A DNA stretch of 64,000 bases, taken from positions 32,001 to 96,000 of IMG/VR virus record IMGVR_UViG_3300021400_001148. One strand, given 5' to 3'. Shown one piece after another: positions 7,361 to 32,186 of the stretch (the first letter of the stretch is position 1; every line of letters starts with the position of its first letter). This DNA is from a virus. Its lineage: Duplodnaviria > Caudoviricetes. The position numbers were made by a program, and so were the translations under genes. The notes under the pieces were generated by a model. The model was not told the origin of the DNA. It was given only the letters and a program-made list of their open reading frames with translations, and made no database searches.

Positions 7361-10300
7361 ATGGCAGAAATCACCGGAAAGACATTCAATTACAATAAAA
7401 CGGAACTCACCGTCAAGTTTCCACAAAACACCGGGACCACGGAAAATGTATATTCCGTACAGGTCAGCGGTACAGCCGTGGACGGTGTGACTCGTGTCTT
7501 ATCCAACACGGCCACAGTCCACCAGAATCCAAATGGGGCAATCTGGTTCAGCCCATCGGCATATTCCGGAGAAAGCGCTGGCGGAAATGCTGTTGTTGAG
7601 ATTTTTTTAGAAAATGTTGACGGCAGCACTTTACAGGTAACAGCGTGGGATGGGGCGTTTATCGTCAACCCCCATATTGAAAATGGGCAGATTCTTTTTT
7701 ATTTACGAGAAAACACCACTGCGGTTGGCCGTGGAGGCACTATAACAGTTTCCGGCTTTGACATAAATGGTGAAAGTATTGAATCTTCTCTTGAAATTGA
7801 ACAGGCTGCGGGGTTACCGGTTTCCATAAAAGTTTTGCCGGAAGAAACAGAGACTACATTCAGTGCGACCGAAGTCTTGTTCGGTATACAGATACTCAAT
7901 GGTAGCGTGGAATCTGGAACCATAGGCCTCGCCGCCCACTCGAGTAATGTCACAGAAAACAATCTGACGGTTTCCCAAGACGGGGCTACACTTGCAATTC
8001 CTGAAAACCAGAGTTACATCTCCCAAAACAAGTACACATTCAAAGTAAGTGCAATAACCACAAGTAACGAATATGTTGAGTCTAACGAGGCGGTTGTCCT
8101 ACAAAACCCAAGAACCACCAGCGGAACCTTGAGACTTACGGCCAGTTCTCGTGAAATATCATACTCTGCGAGAACCGCAACATTCAGGGTTGTCTCCGAG
8201 GGAATAGATAACATTGATGCTTGTGACGGACTTGGAACAATATCGGATGACATTCTGACGATTACTTTTCCGGCAAATGTTTCTTACACTGAAGAAATTT
8301 TTCTCAACGCCTGTGTTTCCGGCATTACTTCCAATGGCACAGTTGTAAGGGCTTATTCAATGGTGAAGCAGAGGAAGTGCCCCGGGCTTTTTCTCGGTGT
8401 TTCATCTGAAGACGCAAGACAACGGATGACTGATTTTGAACCGCAAGGCACCCCCTTTCAAATAGAGGCCCCGTGGTATACAACGTCTACGCTTCTTTGT
8501 TTTCTTTCGCCGAACCTGACAAATATAGGAATAAGTTCATTATCAGAGGGCGTTACAGCAGAAATCTTCAATGTTTCTGGGACTGTTTCTGTAACATTCC
8601 CACAGAATCTTGACGAATCTGGCATATCTGAACGAGTTCTTGTTGTCAGCGGCAAGACATCCGACGGGGGTGCTATCACTAAAACCTGTAAAATTATACA
8701 GGACGCTATGGCCGGTGGAAGAATAATCCTCGGCCTTCAGGGAAGCATTGAAACTACAGAAACCGATGTAGATTCATTGCCCCATACAATAAACCTTGAA
8801 TATCAGACCACAGGCGTTACAAATCTCGAAATCTCGTCTGCCACAAGACCAATTGGCATTGAAATATCGAAAGCCTTTTCCGGGGACAATGGAGTGACAA
8901 TAAATATTGGTGAAAACAGGTCGTATACACAGAACTGTTTTTATGAGGTGGTCGTCAAAGGAACCAACGGAAATGGTGATGAGGTAGTATCCAATGTGTT
9001 TACCATTGTTCAAGGACAAAAGGTAATTCCACCGGCAAGGATATTTTTCAATCTCGAAGGGTGTGACGGCACTGGTGAATGTGAATCTGATGTTGAGGAT
9101 TATTCCACCGGTGCAGCATATTCATATACATCTGAAAATATTAGCGAAGGTTCGCTCGAGGTGTTTTTCGACGAAGGAAGTGCAGACGATGCAACACTGT
9201 CTTTTGATTCGGAAAACGTATATATAAATTTTGATGGATACCCTGACGAAGACAAAACATATCATATTATCCTTAAAGGGTATGATTTGTCAGGGCAAAA
9301 TGAGATTGTGTGTCTTTCACCACTCACGGTTGTGCACCATGCAATGTCAATCCCTGTGTTGGAAGCAACCTTTGAAGGCGGCACGAGCGGAGAAATCGGC
9401 GTGGAGGTTGTTGCGAATTGTGACGAAACGGAGGCCATTCTAATCATAAGAGGCGAAAACCTCGATTTCTCTTACCTTCCAACCCTTTCAGGCCAGCGGT
9501 GCTCGTTTAGTGTCGGCCAATGGGAAAACCGGGTTTGCCAATGCACTGTTTCCTATCCCGAAAACGAAAATTACAGGGATGATACTCACGAATATGATGA
9601 ATACCATATAACCCTTTCAGCCGTTGCGTTGAATGGGGCTGCAGTTTCTTACGAAAAGGACATCGTAATAAAACAAAACCGTTGTAAAACCCCGCCGTCT
9701 GTTAACCTCACCCTTTCCAGAATAAACGGGGAAAACGTTCCCAGTGGCTCAACAATACCATATGATGCTGATAACATTACTTGGAAAATCACAACCTCTT
9801 ACATTCAATCCGGAACAGTTGAAATAACACTCCCGGAATCTGGCTCATTCATAAAAGATGTTGAGGAAGTCGTCAATGGCGAAGAAGAACTATGGGAAGG
9901 AGAGGCGTTGTCCAATCTCTACAAGAAGGAAAAACTTTGGAAGGTTTCATCTTCCCCGGAAACCACTCATATAACTGACACTGGAACGACACATATAGAG
10001 CAGAACAGTGGCACGACAACGAATATAGTGTCGATATCCGGAAACGGAATATCCTATTCAGCGGTTACTGCTTCTGTAATTGTCACAGCAGTCACATATG
10101 ACAGCGTCGTTGTTTATGCTCCGGGAGCCGGCGGTGAAGTGGTCCTCGAATATGGGCAGGGTATTGTGAACCCAACAATTGTCACTGGTGGTACCATCGG
10201 CTGCTGTACAGGAATTTCTTTGGACTCTGCCAATAGAAAAGTCATTGCAAGATTCACAGAAAACACTGGAAACACCGAATCGTCGCCTATTACAGTAAAG

Positions 10301-15305: not shown

Positions 15306-15506
15306 ATGGAAGACACTACTGGAAGATGGAAGTTCATTGAACTCACCGACGGAACTATTGTTAATTCCTATGACATTATACTTTTGAATGTCGATACTGG
15401 CGAGGATGGTGAAAAGGCGTACAAACTGTACCTTCGGGGAAAAAAGATGACACTTGCCCTCACCAAAGATGATTACGACATCATTAGGAATTTTCTCTGT
15501 GGTTAA
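15306..15506 (+). CDS. hypothetical protein
   Basis: 66-aa ORF coupled to the previous stop. Confidence 0.65.
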   Translation: MEDTTGRWKFIELTDGTIVNSYDIILLNVDTGEDGEKAYKLYLRGKKMTLALTKDDYDIIRNFLCG

Positions 15507-15553
15507 TGCGCCGGAAATGGAAAAGAGAAAGATATTTTAATTATATTTGCAGC

Positions 15554-15949
15554 ATGGAAAAACACGAGGGAAAATATTATATTCATGTCGAGTACACAAC
15601 TGGAGACTCATTCGGTAGTCAGGAAACCTATGAAGATGTGGACTACGGTTGGAATGATTTTGAAATTGCGGCGATAAACGCCAAGGCAATGGCTCAGCAC
15701 GCGAGAATATATGAGGAATCAGAATACAGCACAAAGGAAAAAACTGAAAACAAGTGTCGCGGACACTGGTGGTTGGCTAAGCCTGAGAACAATTACAGTA
15801 TAATCGACGAAAGGATTTATCTTACACTCGATAATGGGGACAAAGTTCTCTATCGCTGCCCTTGGTGTGGGTATTTTGAGCGGTTTCACAGTGCTGAAGT
15901 CAGAATAAATGAAAAACAATGCAAATTCACGAAATATGACAATTGTTGA
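15554..15949 (+). CDS. hypothetical phage protein
   Basis: Y.TGDSFGS...W.GYFER pattern; ATG 4 nt after TATATTTG. Confidence 0.75.
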   Translation: MEKHEGKYYIHVEYTTGDSFGSQETYEDVDYGWNDFEIAAINAKAMAQHARIYEESEYSTKEKTENKCRGHWWLAKPENNYSIIDERIYLTLDNGDKVLYRCPWCGYFERFHSAEVRINEKQCKFTKYDNC

Positions 15950-19327: not shown

Positions 19328-19356
19328 CTCTCGGACTTTTTTTGTATATTTGTAAT

Positions 19357-19968
19357 ATGAAAAACGAGTTTTGTACAAAAATAGAACATCCGGAAAAAAC
19401 CTATCTGATTTCCGACACACATTTTTGGCATACAAATATTCTAAAATATTGTAGCCGGCCATTCGCTTCTGTAGAGGAGATGAATGCAGCCCTTATTGAG
19501 AACTGGAACAATGTTGTTGGTCCGGATGACCACATTTACAGTCTCGGGGATTTCTGTTTTGGTAATGTAGAAAAATGGAATTCAGTCCTCGCTCCTGGTG
19601 TATTGAACGGCCACATTCATCTTGTCCTCGGAAACCATGACCCCGAGAGGCTTTACCGTGACGGTGTTATGCGGGAAAGGTTCGATGAAATCTGTTTCCA
19701 AAAGTACCTTTTGGCCGATGGATGGGGAATATACCTCAATCACTTTCCCTTCCTCGAGTTCTCCAATAATTTCGACCACCATGTATGTCAGGCTTATGGC
19801 CATGTACACAGTGGTCCCAACAATGTCGGGGCTCTCACCAATGAAAGGCTGAAGATGGTGCAATGGAATCAGTACGATGTGGGTGCTGATAACAATAATT
19901 ATGGACCGATTTCGGTTTTGGAATTTTTGAACATAATTAAAGAAAGAAGGGAAGCGTATGGAAAATAA
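19357..19968 (+). CDS. calcineurin-like metallophosphoesterase
   Basis: SDTHFWH, LGDF, GNHD, NHFP and GHVH motifs. Confidence 0.92.
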   Translation: MKNEFCTKIEHPEKTYLISDTHFWHTNILKYCSRPFASVEEMNAALIENWNNVVGPDDHIYSLGDFCFGNVEKWNSVLAPGVLNGHIHLVLGNHDPERLYRDGVMRERFDEICFQKYLLADGWGIYLNHFPFLEFSNNFDHHVCQAYGHVHSGPNNVGALTNERLKMVQWNQYDVGADNNNYGPISVLEFLNIIKERREAYGK

Positions 19969-20473: not shown

Positions 20474-20624
20474 TATACCTGTTGGCTAAAAAATGAACAA
20501 ATATGACATAATACAATATTATTTTAGGAATTTTGCGCGTCGGTGTGCGCGTGTATTGCTCGGAAAATCAATAAGATAGAACGAGAAGGTTGTAAATCCT
20601 TGTTGGGTAGCCAACAGGTATATC
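20472..20624. repeat. perfect 17-bp inverted repeats flanking 119 bp
   Basis: GATATACCTGTTGGCTA (20472-20488) and TAGCCAACAGGTATATC (20608-20624). Confidence 0.9.
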
Positions 20625-20665: not shown

Positions 20666-21235
20666 ATGGGAAAGAAAATTTTAGTAGTCGTTGATGTACA
20701 GAACGATTTTGTAACAGGAAGCCTCGGGTCCAAGGATGCTCAGGCTGCAATCCCCAAAATTGTTGAACGCATTTCAAGGGCTGATTACGACGCCCTCTAT
20801 TTTACCAGAGACACCCACTATGATAATTATCTGGAAACTAATGAGGGAAAGAAACTCCCCGTGAAGCACTGCATATTGAACACTTGGGGATGGAACATAT
20901 GCGATGAGGTTATGGCTGCGGCGAACAAGGTCCAGGTATCTCACCCGTACATCCTCCAGCACATCATTGACAAACCGACTTTTGGAAGCGAGATTATGGC
21001 CAACGACATTTGGCAGTACCTTGCCATTGCCACGGAAACTTCGGACCAGTCGGAGGTTGAACTCCTTGGTTTCTGCACGGACATTTGTGTTGTGTCCAAT
21101 GCCCTCCTTGTTAAGGCGGCAGTGTTTGAAAGGGCTGAGGTGACGGTCAACTCGGAATGTTGTGCCGGCGTAACACCCGAACTTCACGAGGCTGCACTCA
21201 ATGTAATGAAAAGTTGTCAAATAAACATCATTTAA
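20666..21235 (+). CDS. pncA: nicotinamidase/isochorismatase-family cysteine hydrolase
   Basis: VVDVQNDF, RDTH, P.HC, DK.TFGS and GFCTDICV motifs. Confidence 0.85.
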   Translation: MGKKILVVVDVQNDFVTGSLGSKDAQAAIPKIVERISRADYDALYFTRDTHYDNYLETNEGKKLPVKHCILNTWGWNICDEVMAAANKVQVSHPYILQHIIDKPTFGSEIMANDIWQYLAIATETSDQSEVELLGFCTDICVVSNALLVKAAVFERAEVTVNSECCAGVTPELHEAALNVMKSCQINII

Positions 21236-21236
21236 T

Positions 21237-21476
21237 ATGAAAGCAAATAAACTTAAGGGCCTTGCCCGCCACGGCTGCAAGAAGATTATGCAGACAATCA
21301 CACTGTCCAAGACAGCAACGAACACCAATCAGAAACTCACAAAGACTATTATCCATAGTCGTAACTTCAATAAACATGGATACAGGACTCTGGCTGAAAT
21401 GGTTTATGAAAGTTATGCCGATTACCTCAAGAGACGGAACGCCCTTCCTGCACCTGATACAACAGAACTTGCATAG
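21237..21476 (+). CDS. small basic hypothetical protein
   Basis: fills the gap between pncA and the Prs-like gene with 1-2 nt spacing. Confidence 0.6.
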   Translation: MKANKLKGLARHGCKKIMQTITLSKTATNTNQKLTKTIIHSRNFNKHGYRTLAEMVYESYADYLKRRNALPAPDTTELA

Positions 21477-21478
21477 GT

Positions 21479-22348
21479 ATGATTGAAATCAGGACGGCTT
21501 TTACAACCATTCCGTATAAACTTATCAACTACCCCGACGGTACACAGAAGATAGACTTCGAGAATGACTTCCGTTCTTACGCCGGGGTGGAAGATTTGTT
21601 CCTTGTATGGAAAGGTTATCGTGGTGACGAAGAATTAGTCACACTCATTTATCTCACGAGGCACATCCAGAACGAGTGGCATTTGAACCCGGGGTTGTAT
21701 CTCCCATATGTTCCGAATGCGAGGATGGACAGGGTAAAAGATGAGGTCTATGAGGTCTTCACCCTCAAATATTTTACCGAGATTATCAATTCACTGAACT
21801 TCAAGTTCGTGCAAGTTCTTGACCCTCACTCCAATGTGACATCTGCCCTGCTTGACAAGGTCAAGTCAGTATCCCCTTACGGGTTTATCAGTAACGCAAT
21901 CGACCATATCAAAAATGTGAAAGGGGCGAATAAAGTTTTTCTTTATTTCCCAGACGAAGGTGCTGAAAAGAGATATTCGGAACTCTTTAGGGAATCTGAC
22001 TATCTTGTCGGGCACAAGAAACGCAACTGGCGTACCGGGGAGATTGAGGGGCTCACCATTACTGGGAAAAACGGCCAGAACTACACCATTCCCGAAGATG
22101 CAAGCGTGCTGATGGTGGATGACATCATTTCATATGGCGGTACTCTTTCGCATAGTGCTTATGTATTGAAAGAAATGGGATTCTCTCACATTTACGCTTA
22201 TGCAACACATGTGGAAGACAGCGTCCTTGATAAAGATAAGGGAACGCTTTGGAAAGATGTTGAAAATGGTTTGGTTGATATGATTTTTACGACCGACAGC
22301 CTTTTCAGTAAAAAGAACTACCTAATCAATGTCTCGAAATGTAGTTAA
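21479..22348 (+). CDS. ribose-phosphate pyrophosphokinase-like protein (Adps-like)
   Basis: YPDG, LPYVPNARMDR, DPHS, FPDEGA..RY, K.R, VDDIISYGGT and ATH motifs. Confidence 0.88.
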   Translation: MIEIRTAFTTIPYKLINYPDGTQKIDFENDFRSYAGVEDLFLVWKGYRGDEELVTLIYLTRHIQNEWHLNPGLYLPYVPNARMDRVKDEVYEVFTLKYFTEIINSLNFKFVQVLDPHSNVTSALLDKVKSVSPYGFISNAIDHIKNVKGANKVFLYFPDEGAEKRYSELFRESDYLVGHKKRNWRTGEIEGLTITGKNGQNYTIPEDASVLMVDDIISYGGTLSHSAYVLKEMGFSHIYAYATHVEDSVLDKDKGTLWKDVENGLVDMIFTTDSLFSKKNYLINVSKCS

Positions 22349-22396
22349 TTGCGCCGGGGCAGTAATTGCTCCGGTTCTTTTTTGTATATTTGCAAT

Positions 22397-22723
22397 ATGA
22401 AGAAATTTTTATGTATTGTATTAGGATTGATAATTGTGTCTGCTTGCCAATTTACATCCAGAGAACGCAATTATCGTTGTGAAATTGTTTACAAAATCTA
22501 TTATCCCGGGGAAACGGTGATGTGTAAACGAACATTTATGGGGCATGAAACGGCTCGCTATTATCTTGATTCGTCACGTGGCACCAATTACCTTTGGGTT
22601 GAATTTGTCAACCAGCCGGAGCGTATTCCCAGACTCAGTGACATCGACGAATGTATTCTTTCAACCACAGCCCCAGTAAGGGTAATATCCTTTAACAAAG
22701 AAAAAATAAATGATGGAAATTAA
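22397..22723 (+). CDS. putative lipoprotein
   Basis: MKKFLCIVLGLIIVSAC lipobox-like signal; own promoter. Confidence 0.7.
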   Translation: MKKFLCIVLGLIIVSACQFTSRERNYRCEIVYKIYYPGETVMCKRTFMGHETARYYLDSSRGTNYLWVEFVNQPERIPRLSDIDECILSTTAPVRVISFNKEKINDGN

Positions 22724-24299
22724 TCCCCTTCTTTTAATTGATTTTTACAAAGCGGTTCACGGAACGATGATTCCGCAGAACATGGTAAAAAGTGTAAGTT
22801 ACTATACACCCCGCAGGTCCCGCGTTGAGAGATGGGACCAGGTTGTGTTTTACGGTCTGCAGGCTTTCTGTAAGACTTGGCTAATTGACTACTTCAATGC
22901 CAACTTCTTCCAGAAAAAGAGGGAAGATGTGGTTGAAGAGTATCGTCGTGTACTTGACAATTCTTTTGGAAAGGGAATATACAATCTTGAAAGGGTGGGG
23001 CATCTCCATGATTTGGGATATCTGCCAGTTGAGATTGTGGCACTTCCCGAGGGAACAAAGGTGGACATGGGCGTGCCTATTTTCGGTATCACCAATACCC
23101 ACCCCGATTTTGCGTGGCTTCCACAGGCGTTGGAAAGTCTTATTTCAGCCGAGTTGTGGTACCCTATGATTTGTGCTACTGTGGGTAATACATACAGGGA
23201 GGTTGTCAATAAGTATTATGATGAGACTTGTGACGATGATGCCCCAAGGCGCAGGGCACTCGGTAATTTCGATTTTCGTGGCGATGACGGACTCGATGCA
23301 TCATTGAAAGCCGCAGGCGGATGGCTTCTTTCTTTTGTCAACACCGCGACTGTCCCGGCGATACCTTATATGGAAAAGATGTACAATTGTGACTGTGAGA
23401 AGGATGAAGTTGGCTTTGGTGCGGTCTCTACTGAACATTTTGTGATGTGTTCCAACAGTGCGTATGACACCAAGCATAATCCGGATTACGAGTATGCAGA
23501 TATCGACCCTCGTCGGGAGAGAGTCTTCTTGAAAAAACTTCTGACTGAACTTTATCCTCACACCTCGTTCAGTTGTGTATGCGATAGTTACGATTATTGG
23601 AATGTGGTGAAAAACATCCTTCCGACCCTTAAGGAGGAGATTCTTGCTCACGACGGTTGTTTCCTTGTCCGTGGAGACTCGGGGGACTGTGTAAAGGTTG
23701 TTACTGAAACGGTTTTTGAACTTTGGAAGATTTTCGGCGGAACAGTGAACTCCAAGGGATACAAGGTTCTGGACCCTCATGTAAAGGCACTTTATGGGGA
23801 TAGTATAACTGTTCAGCGTGCAGGTCAGATTTATCAAATCCTCAAGGACAATGGGTTTGCCGCCCAGAATGTAAGTCTTGGTGTTGGTAGTTTTAGTATG
23901 CATTGTATTGAAGAAGTAGTTGAAAAAGATTTGGGCTTAGGCTATACATTAAAAGAAACAGTTCTTTCACCTTTTACTAGAGACACTTTTTCAAGCGCCA
24001 TCAAAAGCGTTTACGCTGAATTCAGGAATGAGGACGGAACCATTGACAAAGTTCCGATTTACAAAGACCCCAAAACTGACCGCGAAAGTGGATTTTCCTT
24101 CAAGAAAAGCCAGAAGGGGTGCTGTGAGGTCTTCTGGCGGGACAAATGGAACCAACGACTTGCATATACTGACGGACTAACTTGGGATGAGGCACATAAT
24201 GATAGTAATTTTCTTCAGCCAGTGTTCCGTGATGGCGTCCTTCTCAGGGAAACAACCCTGAAAGAAATAAGGGTGAGACTCAATAATGGGGAGTTTTAA
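22710..24299 (+). CDS. nicotinamide phosphoribosyltransferase-like protein (NAMPT/Namat-like)
   Basis: DFYK..H, DF.FRG, TEH.VM, DSYDYW, VRGDSGD, YGDSIT, GVGSF, TRDT and KKSQKG motifs. Confidence 0.92.
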   Translation: MMEINPLLLIDFYKAVHGTMIPQNMVKSVSYYTPRRSRVERWDQVVFYGLQAFCKTWLIDYFNANFFQKKREDVVEEYRRVLDNSFGKGIYNLERVGHLHDLGYLPVEIVALPEGTKVDMGVPIFGITNTHPDFAWLPQALESLISAELWYPMICATVGNTYREVVNKYYDETCDDDAPRRRALGNFDFRGDDGLDASLKAAGGWLLSFVNTATVPAIPYMEKMYNCDCEKDEVGFGAVSTEHFVMCSNSAYDTKHNPDYEYADIDPRRERVFLKKLLTELYPHTSFSCVCDSYDYWNVVKNILPTLKEEILAHDGCFLVRGDSGDCVKVVTETVFELWKIFGGTVNSKGYKVLDPHVKALYGDSITVQRAGQIYQILKDNGFAAQNVSLGVGSFSMHCIEEVVEKDLGLGYTLKETVLSPFTRDTFSSAIKSVYAEFRNEDGTIDKVPIYKDPKTDRESGFSFKKSQKGCCEVFWRDKWNQRLAYTDGLTWDEAHNDSNFLQPVFRDGVLLRETTLKEIRVRLNNGEF

Positions 24300-24372: not shown

Positions 24373-25098
24373 ATGGCAAAAATTGTTAGTTTGTATGGTG
24401 GTCTTGGCGGCCTTGAGTTTGGCTTTAAAAGGGCTGGCTTTGATGTGGTTTGTGGAAACGAAGTGGATGAAACTATCAGAAATATTTTTGTGAGTAATTT
24501 CCCGGGGTCCTTCTGCTACAATAGCAATCTCGATGGTGTATGCACCTGCGGTTTCAAACACAGGAATCCACTGGGGATTGTCGGGCAAATTCGTGATGAG
24601 CACGACCGCGGGCATTTTTCAAGGATTCTTGCAGCAACGAAGCCGGCATTTTTCGTGGCTGTGGCAGATGGTGGCCTTGTTGATACAAACAGGAATGACG
24701 AACTGACTAAGATAACAGACGACCTCGGGTCTAAGGGTTATGATATCTTTGTTGAATGGATGGACGAATATGATTACGGCTCTCAGTTCAGTAAATCCTA
24801 TACTTACATTGTCGGATTCACACAAGAATCAGAGGTCCAGAACTTTGTCTTTCCCGAAAAAACCGTAGTCAGAGACAGTGGCCCCAATGCTTATGCTGTT
24901 GACCCCGTTACGCTTCCATCGTCCCAACTTCTTGAGGAGAAGGGTCTTGCACCAGAATACAACCTCTTTGGTCATGAGAATGAACCGGCGGTGAATCAAG
25001 CAATTATCGACACTATCTCCCCCAATGTTGGAGAGGCCCTCGCAAGAGCGATATCCAAAGTCAAGGTTACAGTAATGAAAAAAATCGGAGAGTTCTAG
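24373..25098 (+). CDS. degenerate C5-cytosine methyltransferase homolog
   Basis: motif I-like SLYGGLGGLEFGF..AGF..V..NE.D and a motif X-like C-terminus are present; PC, ENV and QxRxR are absent. Confidence 0.7.
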   Translation: MAKIVSLYGGLGGLEFGFKRAGFDVVCGNEVDETIRNIFVSNFPGSFCYNSNLDGVCTCGFKHRNPLGIVGQIRDEHDRGHFSRILAATKPAFFVAVADGGLVDTNRNDELTKITDDLGSKGYDIFVEWMDEYDYGSQFSKSYTYIVGFTQESEVQNFVFPEKTVVRDSGPNAYAVDPVTLPSSQLLEEKGLAPEYNLFGHENEPAVNQAIIDTISPNVGEALARAISKVKVTVMKKIGEF

Positions 25099-25102
25099 AC
25101 CA

Positions 25103-25627
25103 ATGGAAGGCGATTTTCGCAAAATAGTTTTTTTGGATATCGACGGTGTAGTCAATCATGAGCGATGGTATAACGAAACCAAAGGCCGCTCCGGTGACTT
25201 CGACCCCCGGGCAATAGAACTCCTCAATCAACTGGAAGACATTGGTGCAGAAGTTGTAATAAGTTCTTCTTGGGGAGAGAGTGGTATTAAACCACTTCAG
25301 GATGTTGGTCTCAAACTCCCGATAATTGGTTGTACGGAGCACTATTATCAGGATTGGTTGTGTAGAGGTAATGAAATAGAGAAATGGTTGGTAACTAATC
25401 TTGGTGGTATGTGCACAAAATATGGTTGTGACAGAGACACTGGAGAGCCATATTACAGAAAACATTATAATGAAGAAGACACTGATTATGAATATGTTAT
25501 CTTTGACGATGATACTGACATGCTTCTCGGGCAGAAGGACAACTTCATTCAAACCAACAGGGAAACTGGTATAACACAGGAGGATATTGACAAGGCTGTT
25601 CAAATTCTCACTCGTGTTCAAAAATAA
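25103..25627 (+). CDS. HAD-family phosphatase (RNA-repair-associated type)
   Basis: FLDIDGV, VISSSW, RG.EI..WL and YVIFDDD.DM motifs. Confidence 0.85.
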   Translation: MEGDFRKIVFLDIDGVVNHERWYNETKGRSGDFDPRAIELLNQLEDIGAEVVISSSWGESGIKPLQDVGLKLPIIGCTEHYYQDWLCRGNEIEKWLVTNLGGMCTKYGCDRDTGEPYYRKHYNEEDTDYEYVIFDDDTDMLLGQKDNFIQTNRETGITQEDIDKAVQILTRVQK

Positions 25628-25817: not shown

Positions 25818-25879
25818 GCAAATCCCCGCTAATTGCGGGGATTTTTGTATATTTGTCATATGAAGGAAGCGGAATAACG

Positions 25880-26677
25880 ATGAAAAAAAATAAAAAACAA
25901 TCAAGCCAATCAATGTTATCAAAAACAATAAACGAGTGCATAAAGGAACTCCACGAAAATATTGCCAATGGAATGGACGAGTATGCTGACGGCGACTTTT
26001 ACGATGTTGTCCATCAAGTATATCCGATTAATCTAACGGAAGGGCTGATTGATACATATCCGGCAGAACTTGTGGTTAAAACCATTGGAAATTTATATAA
26101 TCTCTATCCAGTGGTCGAAAATAACGCATTGGGGGTAATAAAAATAAAGGAAAAATCTAATAAAGAAACTGTAATAGATATTGTTCTCTACAGTTACGAT
26201 GAAAAAACGGCCACGGGTATTAGAAAACATTTCCTTAAATATGGGTATTTCTTGAGCCTTGAGGATGTTCCCGCTGTCGGAAAAAGTGCACGACTCAGAT
26301 TTGAGAAAAGGTTCGGGGACCGTTTTACAAAGAAAAACATTAAAACAAAGACCACTACACTTTACCATGTTGCTCCGGCCAAGTCAGTGGAAAAAATATT
26401 AAGGCAGGGTTTAACACCACGGCAAGAACGGACATACAACAACTCAAAGGAAAACGGTGATATGGAAAAGGTATATCTATACCTAGAGCATCCAGACGCT
26501 TCTGATTTAACCTATTTCCAGTGGCGGTTTGGTGATATTGCAATTTTTGAAATAGATGTGGATAAGCTCCAAGACAATATCAGTTTCTTCTACGACCCAA
26601 GACTGAACAAAGCGATGTTCACATACGAACCAATAACGCCACAAGCAATAAAATTAGAACAAATCATTAAAAAATGA
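25880..26677 (+). CDS. protein with a C-terminal ADP-ribosyltransferase/Tpt1-like domain
   Basis: LYHV......IL..GL.P...VYL...FEID......F.DP......T...I.P.AI pattern. Confidence 0.55.
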   Translation: MKKNKKQSSQSMLSKTINECIKELHENIANGMDEYADGDFYDVVHQVYPINLTEGLIDTYPAELVVKTIGNLYNLYPVVENNALGVIKIKEKSNKETVIDIVLYSYDEKTATGIRKHFLKYGYFLSLEDVPAVGKSARLRFEKRFGDRFTKKNIKTKTTTLYHVAPAKSVEKILRQGLTPRQERTYNNSKENGDMEKVYLYLEHPDASDLTYFQWRFGDIAIFEIDVDKLQDNISFFYDPRLNKAMFTYEPITPQAIKLEQIIKK

Positions 26678-27642
26678 ATTTAATAAGACCAAGTTACGAA
26701 ATAATTGAGCAGGGCATGGGACTGCAGGGAGTCTATGATATCATAGAAAACGCCGGGAAAACTTCGTATAAAAGCCCAGTCAAGGGTGGTGATGATGCAA
26801 AAAAATTCGTAGAGACTCGTTCCAATGAAAAACATGGTGCGGTTCTAGAATTCGGCACTGTTTACCTTGGTTTCGAGGATGCGGTGACCATCTTGCCGTC
26901 ACAACAAGCATACATTGATGAAGCGGTCGCTTTTTATGAGAAAAACAAGTTCTCGGTTGTCAACGCTGTTCCCGGAATCGGATGGTTCGTCACTACGAAT
27001 TTCCGCGTCATTGTTGAGAATCACCGAGAGGAAGATTTACTTTACCTCTATTGTAACAATCACCCATCAGGGCATCATGAAAAGCGATACTGCGTAAGGT
27101 TCACTCTCGACAGGTTTACCGGCGAGGAATTCCTTCGTCACCGTGTGTTCTCCTTCTGCAGGGAAAGTACGAGATACTGCAACTATTCGAAGGACAAGTT
27201 CAATAACAACATTACATTCGTAATACCCCCGTGGATTGGAAAGGAAGACCTTGCTGAAGGTGAAAATATACAATACTGGGATGGTGATTGGGTTGATATG
27301 AATGAAATGAAAATCATCGCTTCCGACCGTTCATCGAAGGTCTCCCACTGGCTTAATGCAGTTGCAAGAAGCGAAATGGATTACATGGAACTTGTGTCCG
27401 GCCATGGAGAAGAAAAGGCGTGGACACCGCAAATGGCCAGAACAATTCTGCCGTGCGCCATCAAGTCACCACTTGCAATGTGTGGTTTTGCCCACGACTG
27501 GATTCACTTTTTCCACTTGAGGGTGTTCGGAACCACTGGAGCCCCCCACCCACAGGCAAAGGAACTGGCAGAGCCACTTATGAACGAGTTTATTAAAAGG
27601 GGATACTTAACAGAAGAAGAAATTAAAGCTAAAATAGTATGA
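26674..27642 (+). CDS. thyX: FAD-dependent thymidylate synthase
   Basis: RHRVFSFCRESTRY, AR.ILP, HFF.LR and AHP-like (APHPQ) motifs. Confidence 0.92.
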   Translation: MNLIRPSYEIIEQGMGLQGVYDIIENAGKTSYKSPVKGGDDAKKFVETRSNEKHGAVLEFGTVYLGFEDAVTILPSQQAYIDEAVAFYEKNKFSVVNAVPGIGWFVTTNFRVIVENHREEDLLYLYCNNHPSGHHEKRYCVRFTLDRFTGEEFLRHRVFSFCRESTRYCNYSKDKFNNNITFVIPPWIGKEDLAEGENIQYWDGDWVDMNEMKIIASDRSSKVSHWLNAVARSEMDYMELVSGHGEEKAWTPQMARTILPCAIKSPLAMCGFAHDWIHFFHLRVFGTTGAPHPQAKELAEPLMNEFIKRGYLTEEEIKAKIV

Positions 27643-30925: not shown

Positions 30926-31408
30926 TCACTTGTTGAGTTGGTTTTCGTAGACATAGGCAATAATCGCAATGGCCTCGGAGATTGAAATCTTGTTGTCGTC
31001 GGCGAGGGCTTTTGCGAGAAGAGTTGAAAGAGTTGCCCAAGTGGTTGCGCTGAGGCTCTCCGGAAGGAGTTTGATGGCCTCCTGTGCGGCGACAATCTTT
31101 TCCGCAAGCGTAGCCTTTTCAGCAACATTGGATGCAAGATTGAGAGAATCGATGATGATAGGAAGATTTTTTTCCAGCCATTTCCTTACGGCAGGTACAT
31201 ATTTCGCACCGTATTTGGTATCAACAGTTCTAAGAATTGTCTCTACGATGTCCGCAGCCGCAGATTCGTTGAAGTCTTTGATGGTGTTTATTACGCTGAT
31301 AGCAATGGGGGCGTATTTCACCACGAAATCATCGACCTTTGATGATGTACTTTTAAACCAAGTCACAATCTTGGACCACAGGTTTTTGATTGTTTCAATG
31401 AATTTCAT
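30926..31408 (-). CDS. amphipathic hypothetical late protein
   Basis: starts MKFIETIKNLW; TATTTAT motif 16 nt upstream. Confidence 0.7.
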   Translation of the reverse strand: MKFIETIKNLWSKIVTWFKSTSSKVDDFVVKYAPIAISVINTIKDFNESAAADIVETILRTVDTKYGAKYVPAVRKWLEKNLPIIIDSLNLASNVAEKATLAEKIVAAQEAIKLLPESLSATTWATLSTLLAKALADDNKISISEAIAIIAYVYENQLNK

Positions 31409-31490
31409 AATAATGCATTTTCTTATAAATATTGCGCCCAGCCGGTTAGTTTTTCCCATCCTTTTTGTATATTTGCGAAAACAAAGAGAA

Positions 31491-32186
31491 ATGGAAGATT
31501 GCAGCAAGTACATTTTCATTTGGAAAAACGATTTCTTCCGAATGACCGACTACTTTTTCGATAAGAAAAAGAAGATATTCTATGACCTCACCAATATTAA
31601 GACTGGTGAGGAATATTCGGATGTGCCTCAGGATGAAGTTGTAATATATAAGGGTGTGTATTCCGTGGATGGTTTGAAAGATTTGCCGTCCCCAGACTTT
31701 CTTTTTTTCTGGAGACCTTTTAATTTCGGAAAGAGAATCGGCCCCGGGGTGTTTTCTCAGTGGTATGTTTCACCGTTTGTTATTGATGGCATAACATACG
31801 ATACAGCCGAAAGGTATATGATGGCACAGAAGGCAAAATATTTCAACGACATTGATGTATTCCATCAGATTATGTCTGCTGAAACTGCTGCCGAGTGTAA
31901 AATACTTGGGAAAAAAGTGAAAAATTTTGTTGAGGACAAGTGGGATGAGGTGAAAGGTGCTATTATATTCAATGCCAACATCGCTAAGTTCTCCCAAAAC
32001 AAAGTTCTTAGAAAATATCTTCTTGCAACCAAAGACACCGTTCTTGCCGAGGCTTCCCCGTTTGACAGGGTATATGGAATTGGAATGCTGGCAGATTCAG
32101 ATGCAAGGATTTGGTCCAATTGGAAGGGGCAAAATCTTCTTGGCTTTGTGCTGATGGAGGTCCGTGATTATCTGAGGAAAAAATGA
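31491..32186 (+). CDS. NADAR (YbiA/RibX-like) family protein
   Basis: FSQWY, AE.YMMAQKA..F.D, K.LG..V, AKFSQN, LAEASP.D...GIG and G.NLLG..LM.VR motifs; start reassigned. Confidence 0.92.
   Translation: MEDCSKYIFIWKNDFFRMTDYFFDKKKKIFYDLTNIKTGEEYSDVPQDEVVIYKGVYSVDGLKDLPSPDFLFFWRPFNFGKRIGPGVFSQWYVSPFVIDGITYDTAERYMMAQKAKYFNDIDVFHQIMSAETAAECKILGKKVKNFVEDKWDEVKGAIIFNANIAKFSQNKVLRKYLLATKDTVLAEASPFDRVYGIGMLADSDARIWSNWKGQNLLGFVLMEVRDYLRKK

Follow-up and report, generated by a model that had tools for sequence, protein, structure and literature searches.

The window analyzed here is a 64,000-nucleotide stretch of IMG/VR record IMGVR_UViG_3300021400_001148, namely bases 32001 to 96000 of a phage genome that is complete at 354,809 bp and bounded by direct terminal repeats, and it carries five open reading frames (ORFs) that lie head to tail on the plus strand between positions 20666 and 24299 (Table 1). 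A first-pass annotation had described them as a pncA-like gene, a small ORF, a Prs-like gene, a lipoprotein gene, and a NAMPT-like gene, all in one direction, and both the coordinates and the assignments were confirmed by the ORFs and their family matches. The Prs-like gene and the gene for the NAMPT-fold transferase share a strand and are separated by 361 nt that hold one small ORF, the lipoprotein-like one, the 3′ end of which overlaps the start of the transferase gene by 14 nt. The lipoprotein-like ORF has no family match in Pfam, NCBIfam, or PHROG, and the 79-aa ORF has none in Pfam or PHROG, its sole NCBIfam match being below threshold (NF047380, 19.3 bits versus a cutoff of 80). Homologs of both are absent from 21 related loci. 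We conclude that the two small ORFs are apparently lineage-specific insertions that lie outside the conserved module, and that the module appears to be loosened in this phage by their presence.

Table 1. Features of the NAD-related locus, with positions in the window
Feature	Position	Strand	Size	Remarks
PncA-like nicotinamidase, isochorismatase family	20666-21235	+	189 aa	PF00857, 7e-19; phrog_19305, 2.5e-32
Small ORF	21237-21476	+	79 aa	Gaps of 1 to 2 nt to the pncA and Adps-like genes
Adps-like Prs homolog	21479-22348	+	289 aa	TIGR01251, 69 bits (cutoff, 113)
Terminator-like hairpin	22353-22375	+		GC-rich, followed by a T run; just past the Adps-like stop codon; consensus scan, predicted only
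Lipoprotein-like ORF	22397-22723	+		Signal peptide and lipobox VSAC (MKKFLCIVLGLIIVSAC)
Namat-like transferase, NAMPT fold	22710-24299	+	529 aa	phrog_448, 1e-148; NF006629, 397 bits
Codons N211-T212-A213 of the transferase	23340-23348	+		A213 at Namat Asp215 (human NAMPT Asp219); N211 at a near-invariant Gly
Codon S240 of the transferase	23427-23429	+		Position of the Namat nicotinamide-pocket residue Ala242
Selectivity-clamp helix region GSFSMHC...PFTRD of the transferase	23886-23984	+		F395 (first aromatic) and TRD kept; 22-aa insertion breaks the 11-residue Namat motif

Depletion of nicotinamide adenine dinucleotide (NAD+) is a major bacterial antiphage strategy. The phage answers to it described in the literature that we found are NARP1, NARP2, and NARP3, of which NARP1 consists of Adps and Namat and is known in phages SPbetaL1, Bas63, FADO, and ICP1 and in Paenibacillus foliorum (bioRxiv 10.1101/2024.02.11.579819; PMC12774641; PMC13586617). 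When the window transferase was compared with the PDB, the best matches were 9W5W and 9W5X (9e-98; Namat, 331 bits), the residue numbering of which agrees with the SPbetaL1 Namat numbering of PMC12774641; human NAMPT matched at about 1e-36 and the Nampt of Vibrio phage KVP40 with 146 bits. The catalytic core is present (D11, Y13, F187, R190, H243, R321, and D323), and the only NCBIfam match is NF006629, a Nampt/Namat-type model, with no match to a PncB model. The name of NF006629, nicotinate phosphoribosyltransferase, was discarded as evidence on the base, as validated Namat (594 bits) and KVP40 Nampt (508 bits) match it too. In a tree rooted on KVP40 Nampt, the one Nampt used as outgroup, the window transferase was nested in the Namat radiation, and proteins with Ala or Ser in place of Namat Asp215 formed one clade (support of the Shimodaira-Hasegawa approximate likelihood ratio [SH-aLRT] type, 99). 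A larger tree of 130 rows, representatives drawn from a library of 1.84 billion proteins, comprised 84 canonical rows with Asp or Glu at that position and 46 variant rows, and the 46 non-Asp proteins again formed one clade (support, 93) with no Asp member inside.

The two classes differ most at the contacts to the base. Position D215 was Asp or Glu in 84 of 84 canonical rows and Ala (31), Ser (14), or Val (1) in the variant rows, and position A242 was Ala in 84 of 84 canonical rows and Ser in 45 of 46 variant rows. When all columns of the 130-row alignment were ranked for separation of Asp-type from non-Asp proteins, these two positions came out on top, and the next discriminating columns, H187, G213 (changed to Lys or Asn), S239, V304, and V240, are sequence neighbors of F189, D215, A242, and R306. 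The window transferase carries the change at both top positions (Table 1), together with Asn at Namat Gly213 and Gly at His187. Neither class showed variation at the catalytic His, at the five remaining pocket residues, or at the contacts to ribose and phosphate. In the Namat crystal, D215 and A242 both contact nicotinamide, with Asp215 hydrogen bonded to its amide, and the D215A substitution lowers NAD+ formation about 8-fold (PMC12774641). The equivalent residue of human NAMPT, Asp219, defines specificity according to reviews citing Khan et al. 2006 (PMC4919578, PMC7096376), and, as relayed there (the table of PMC4919578; PMC7096376), D219S switched substrate affinity and D219A abolished activity. 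Because the two top columns are nicotinamide contacts and the rest of the pocket is conserved, the change is focused on the carboxamide-facing part. We conclude that the base pocket of the window transferase is, with high probability, of a nicotinate type.

The altered pocket is accompanied by genes for nicotinate metabolism. When viral contigs were scanned with the window transferase, 21 loci were obtained; all 20 close relatives were of the Ala type, and in most of them PncA and Prs-like genes lay upstream. In the best 80 of 156 loci from a viral scan with PncA, which contain PncA by construction, genes for a Prs-like protein and a transferase both followed in 47, and Ser or Ala was found in 48 of 48 transferases. 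Among prokaryotes, scanned with one genome for each species, 80 loci were obtained at 45 to 74% identity, with a single locus under 58%; all 80 were Ala-type, and PncA, Prs-like, and transferase genes followed in that order in 68. As the same order recurs in dozens of phage contigs, the gene set is no chance neighborhood. Most of the bacterial loci are chromosomal and come from gut or rumen Clostridia (Ruminococcus albus, R. flavefaciens, Konateibacter, Lachnospiraceae, and Oscillospiraceae). In Konateibacter, the gene after the transferase encodes an NH3-type NAD synthetase (NadE; PF02540, 4e-53), homologs of which follow in 66 of the 80 loci from bacteria and in 61 from viruses, that of phage Phass-1 among them, and an NrtR regulator (NUDIX plus NrtR_WHD) adjoins 53 of the 80.

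As a control, 80 canonical Namat loci were collected: the residue was Asp in 79 and Glu in 1, the canonical clamp was present in all 80, Adps in 70, and PncA and NadE in none. Counting distinct sequences with enough flank only, of the 103 Ala/Ser-type loci of phages and gut or rumen Clostridia, 94 contained PncA, 101 an Adps-like gene, and 89 NadE, whereas of the 75 Asp/Glu-type loci, 72 contained an Adps-like gene and none contained PncA or NadE. Of the records in the phage isolate collection, 2016 contain a Namat/Nampt homolog and 14 a PncA-like gene. Besides the module, the genomes of Konateibacter and R. albus 8 each encode a Prs of the housekeeping type and a genuine PncB (NF006695, 687 to 697 bits), and their ordinary Preiss-Handler set is therefore distinct from the module. 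We conclude that the module, judged by its gene content across loci, normally comprises four genes with NadE included, and that the window phage, which lacks NadE, is an exception.

The Prs-like protein resembles Adps rather than housekeeping Prs. Against the TIGR01251 model, the window protein (69 bits), the bacterial module copies (73 to 105 bits), and the validated Adps of SPbetaL1 (106 bits) and ICP1 (98 bits) all scored below the cutoff, whereas housekeeping Prs from the same Clostridia genomes scored 169 to 175 bits. A Prs/Adps tree of 104 rows placed the seven housekeeping Prs, those of E. coli and six module-bearing Clostridia, on one side of a branch (SH-aLRT, 97) and the canonical Adps with all module Prs-like proteins, the window protein included, on the other. 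The residues named as key in the ICP1 Adps structure paper (PMC13586617), R87, H121, D161, K185, D212, and D213, align with R82, H117, D159, K180, D214, and D215 of the window protein. Moreover, a K-x-R-x-x-x-T-G-x-I hairpin that E. coli Prs lacks is present, and the window protein stops at the position where ICP1 Adps stops and is shorter than E. coli Prs, with loss of the C-terminal helices of PRPS. Membership in phrog_619 was dropped as a test for Adps, since E. coli Prs (9e-57) and the window protein (4e-55) match it equally well, and Phe92 and the PP-loop Asp216 of ICP1 Adps were dropped as markers, since even validated SPbetaL1 Adps does not conserve them. A PDB sequence search with the Adps-like protein returned no Adps structure, the top match being a Sulfolobus phosphoribosyl pyrophosphate (PRPP) synthase (6e-10). 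We conclude that the window Prs-like protein is, to judge by tree and residues, of the Adps kind.

The PncA-like protein, when aligned to Pyrococcus horikoshii PncA, has a complete catalytic triad (D10, K103, and C141) and complete metal (zinc) ligands (D49, H51, and H68). Its best PDB relatives are the nicotinamidases 1ILW/1IM5, 6KUA, 2H0R, and 3PL1, with which the catalytic and zinc residues also align, and its score misses that of the curated NCBIfam equivalog (NF008623, 18 bits versus a cutoff of 174). Placed by PF00857 and its PDB relatives, it appears to be a divergent member of the nicotinamidase family.

The first-pass annotation had found neither a nicotinamide mononucleotide (NMN) adenylyltransferase nor NadE in the window, and this extends to the complete 354,809-bp genome, in which no match to PF01467 (CTP_transf_like, the adenylyltransferase/NMNAT family) or PF02540 was detected. 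An NMNAT encoded elsewhere, which the annotation had named as counting against its reading, is therefore absent. Macro domains were likewise absent from the complete genome, hence there is no Adpp-type extension of NARP1 (a Macro-domain phosphatase), as was NadR, with AAA_28 yielding one 18-bit P-loop match only. The annotation had further proposed that the pair is NARP1-like, and that an intact nicotinamidase points either to a variant route through nicotinate and deamido-NAD (NaAD) or to another substrate for the hydrolase. Both trees bear out the kinship with NARP1, with the Prs-like protein on the Adps side and the transferase in the Ala/Ser clade within Namat. The variant route gains support from the change of Asp to Ala at the amide site, linked to PncA and NadE and never found in Asp-type loci, with the activity itself predicted from sequence, and another substrate for the hydrolase is not needed.

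We favor, with moderate confidence, the interpretation that the locus encodes a nicotinate-type (deamidated) version of phage NARP1 with a full route via ADP-ribose pyrophosphate (ADPR-PP) and NaAD. A defense NADase would split NAD+ into ADP-ribose and nicotinamide, and the phage nicotinamidase would convert the nicotinamide to nicotinic acid. The Adps-like enzyme would use ATP to pyrophosphorylate ADP-ribose to ADPR-PP. The Namat-like transferase, having lost the amide-reading Asp and gained Ser and Asn or Lys in its base pocket, would then join nicotinate to ADPR-PP to give NaAD, which NAD synthetase would amidate to NAD+. For the last step, most relatives have an NadE gene of their own, and the window phage would depend on the enzyme of its host, because its own genome has none. 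A more general proposal, that Ala/Ser relatives of Namat catalyze an undescribed reaction (nicotinate + ADPR-PP to NaAD + PPi) and that this reaction, in concert with PncA, NadE, and a kinase of the Adps type, makes up an additional route of NAD+ reconstitution, is in our judgment evenly balanced; by this proposal, the route would be an ADP-ribose-regulated (NrtR) chromosomal operon of gut and rumen Clostridia that has spread among large phages, with the window phage as a stripped form that uses host NadE.

The weakest step of the route through NaAD is the choice of donor, ADPR-PP or PRPP. The Namat clamp helix has the consensus GSX-phi-X-phi-X-phi-TRD with aromatics at positions 3 and 7, and the clamp loop provides a stacking Arg or Lys, R40 in SPbetaL1 (PMC12774641). 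In favor of ADPR-PP, the clamp-loop Arg is conserved (R38 in the window protein; Arg or Lys in 42 of 46 variant rows), with a loop of the same length as in SPbetaL1 Namat. Moreover, the basal Ala/Ser members, Phass-1 and loci L085, L104, and L087, retain an intact 11-residue clamp of the canonical type, [GS/GA]Y[TS][YF]QYxTRD, in a context that already consists of PncA, Adps-like, transferase, and NadE genes, and the clamp insertion arises later on the tree, in a nested clade to which the window protein belongs. As basal branches keep the canonical-type motif, the base switch occurred while the adenine clamp of the enzyme was still intact. Close copies of two Ala-type proteins with a canonical clamp, P0022 and P0017, were not found in scans of viral and metagenome contigs. 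An adenylyltransferase for NMN or nicotinic acid mononucleotide (NaMN) was missing from 13 of 16 related phage records, which include three complete IMG/VR genomes and Phass-1; 12 of the 13 lack any CTP_transf_like gene, and the sole match of the other (G001) is CoaD.

Several observations weigh against that route, for the donor and otherwise. The window clamp helix fails the Namat consensus, as it has Phe at position 3, Cys at position 7 (Namat Y396), and the 22-aa insertion, and adenine recognition is therefore uncertain in the window subclade. Namat also accepts PRPP in vitro (PMC12774641), and it is possible that the transferase uses both donors. A weak NadM-like adenylyltransferase gene occurs in 3 of the 16 related phages; in one of them, a complete 139.7-kb phage, it is flanked by the genes for the Adps-like protein and the Ala-type transferase (L010, 5457-5885; G016:C1:75751-76179), where it scores 50 bits on NF002243, under the cutoff, and the two others carry a similar gene elsewhere. 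Its presence inside the L010 module hints at a branch through NaMN. Two complete phages, L019 and L021, have an Ala-type transferase alone, without PncA or Adps-like genes. In the related locus L018, with a pair of PncA and Ala-type transferase genes, the lack of a Prs-like gene is only apparent, since a decayed one lies downstream (7467-8038) with only its C-terminal half in frame and stops upstream of it. Five relatives checked, including the closest, a 393-kb jumbo phage, all encode the NadE that the window phage lacks. Part of the viral association with PncA reflects collection through PncA itself, and the locus counts are clade level rather than phylogenetically independent, because the tree requires only one change of state. 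Finally, the formation of NaAD from nicotinate and ADPR-PP is not a described reaction, and in the literature we found no paper linking NARP1, Adps, or Namat with nicotinamidase, NadE, nicotinate, or NaAD.

The main competing explanation is a salvage pathway of the Preiss-Handler kind, in which the Prs-like enzyme makes PRPP, the Ala-type transferase, as a nicotinate phosphoribosyltransferase, makes NaMN, and an adenylyltransferase of the host, or an NadM-like one of a phage, completes NAD+ together with NadE. The base-pocket switch and the linkage to PncA and NadE fit this explanation equally well, and the PRPP activity of Namat in vitro (PMC12774641), the broken clamp helix motif of the window protein, the NadM-like genes of three relatives, one of them inside the module, and the lone Ala-type transferases without any Adps-like gene all speak for it. 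It is nonetheless rather unlikely: the Prs-like gene falls on the Adps side of the tree and not on the Prs side, an Adps-like gene is retained in 101 of 103 Ala/Ser loci, even beside housekeeping Prs and canonical PncB, the full adenine clamp is found in basal Ala/Ser members and the clamp Arg and first aromatic are conserved, and the window phage and 13 of 16 related phages lack an NMN/NaMN adenylyltransferase, yet most relatives carry NadE.

The locus could also be an ordinary NARP1 beside which the nicotinamidase is an unrelated or competing neighbor that, for example, feeds host salvage. The pair is indeed adjacent and homologous to Adps and Namat, and the window phage lacks the NadE that a direct nicotinamide route would not need. 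That explanation is highly improbable in view of the replacement of Asp215 by Ala, Ser, or Val and of Ala242 by Ser (45 of 46) across the variant clade, since D215A in Namat (PMC12774641) and, as relayed in PMC4919578, D219A in NAMPT cripple the use of nicotinamide; PncA and NadE are, moreover, tied to Ala/Ser loci and found in 0 of 75 Asp/Glu loci, and an active nicotinamidase would use up the substrate. A different proposal concerns the role of the module and leaves its chemistry as in either the NaAD or the Preiss-Handler-like route: a Clostridia operon for recycling ADP-ribose and nicotinamide would have been taken up as phage auxiliary metabolic genes that may supply NAD+ to NAD+-using enzymes of the phage, with no antidefense function. 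The chromosomal location in Ruminococcus, Konateibacter, Lachnospiraceae, and Oscillospiraceae, the NrtR (Nudix plus winged-helix) regulator beside 53 of 80 loci, and a NADAR-domain protein encoded 6.7 kb downstream in the phage are in keeping with this proposal. Set against these, canonical NARP1 is a demonstrated counterdefense (bioRxiv 10.1101/2024.02.11.579819), the module is widespread in large phages, and metabolic and antidefense roles are compatible rather than exclusive, and we regard a purely metabolic role as improbable. We conclude that a nicotinate-type NARP1 acting via NaAD accounts best for the combination of pocket, tree, and gene content.

Other features were noted at and around the module. 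The 192-nt gap 5′ of pncA holds a long inverted repeat (20474-20624), ATATACCTGTTGGCTA ... TAGCCAACAGGTATAT, with arms about 120 nt apart, which could be a regulatory or an invertible element. Neighboring genes encode a calcineurin-like metallophosphatase (19342-19968), a partial C5-methylase-like ORF, the Pfam match of which is limited to the middle of the domain (24373-25098), an HAD_SAK_2 phosphatase-like protein (25103-25627), and ThyX (26674-27642), and the ORF at 25853-26677 has no Pfam match. The NADAR-domain protein has 405 aa (30969-32186), with the domain at its C terminus (PF08719, 1e-46) and an unassigned N-terminal part of 250 aa. The single NUDIX domain of the genome lies outside the window (genome positions 15404-15799; L001, 1492-2520) in a 342-aa protein, fused to a C-terminal part that resembles HAD/5′(3′)-deoxyribonucleotidase (NT5C). 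Among relatives, a histidine-phosphatase gene (His_Phos_1, 8e-47) lies between the transferase and NadE genes in R. flavefaciens FD-1 (L186, 9283-9834) and two other bacterial loci, and its product may act on phosphorylated species of ADPR or NaAD. Three contigs binned as Candidatus Saccharibacteria (L119 to L121) carry Ala-type transferase and Adps-like genes at 64 to 67% identity, with no PncA and with an NadE-like gene only 31 to 33% identical; they could represent a binning artifact, phage DNA, or real transfer.

If true, a nicotinate-based NARP1 would enlarge NAD biochemistry by a new enzyme reaction, would account for a Namat relative that travels with nicotinamidase and NAD synthetase, and would establish NARP1-type chemistry as a cellular pathway for recycling, under regulation, in Clostridia that abound in gut and rumen. 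The specificity rule, Asp and Ala versus Ala-or-Ser and Ser at two pocket positions, would serve the annotation and engineering of both Namat and NAMPT. The window phage, lacking NadE, would be a natural test of how much of a pathway a phage can leave to its host.

The system resembles NARP1 in that the window phage has an adjacent pair of Prs-like and NAMPT-fold genes, an Adps-side Prs, a Namat-clade transferase with the core, the clamp Arg, and the first aromatic, and no NMNAT. It differs from NARP1 in the transferase, where Asp215 is Ala, Ala242 is Ser, Gly213 is Asn, His187 is Gly, and the clamp bears a 22-aa insertion, and in the module, which adds nicotinamidase and, in most relatives, NadE, neither of which occurs in the 75 Asp/Glu-type loci, and the predicted product of which is NaAD and not NAD+. 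Like NARP2 (Nampt and Nmnat, Vibrio phage KVP40), it is based on an NAMPT-fold enzyme of a large phage for NAD+ supply. Unlike NARP2, it comes from a genome without an adenylyltransferase and has a transferase closer to Namat than to KVP40 Nampt (331 versus 146 bits); KVP40 Nampt has the pocket Asp and the sequence GGGLLQQLDRD at the clamp position, and KVP40 has no isochorismatase-family gene.

Among cellular pathways, the Preiss-Handler route and pyridine nucleotide cycle (PncA, PncB, NadD, and NadE) likewise begin with deamidation by PncA and end with amidation by NadE, but the transferase here belongs to the Nampt/Namat family and not to PncB, and the module lacks NadD and has a dedicated Prs paralog of the Adps type. 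The NrtR-regulated operons of Rodionov et al. 2008 (PMC2330246) are similar in that the bacterial module adjoins an NrtR-type regulator and a second prs paralog is tied to a nadV-family gene. In the part of that paper available to us, by contrast, prs-nadV and pncA-pncB(-nadD-nadE) are separate, and neither an operon of pncA, prs, nadV-like, and nadE genes nor a pocket switch is described. The human NAMPT Asp219 mutants (Khan et al. 2006, as relayed in PMC4919578 and PMC7096376) concern the same pocket position, and the Ser of D219S also occurs naturally, in 14 of the 46 variants. Whereas those mutants were, by these secondary accounts, engineered in a PRPP-using enzyme, the change described here is natural and clade-wide and is accompanied by A242S and G213K/N.

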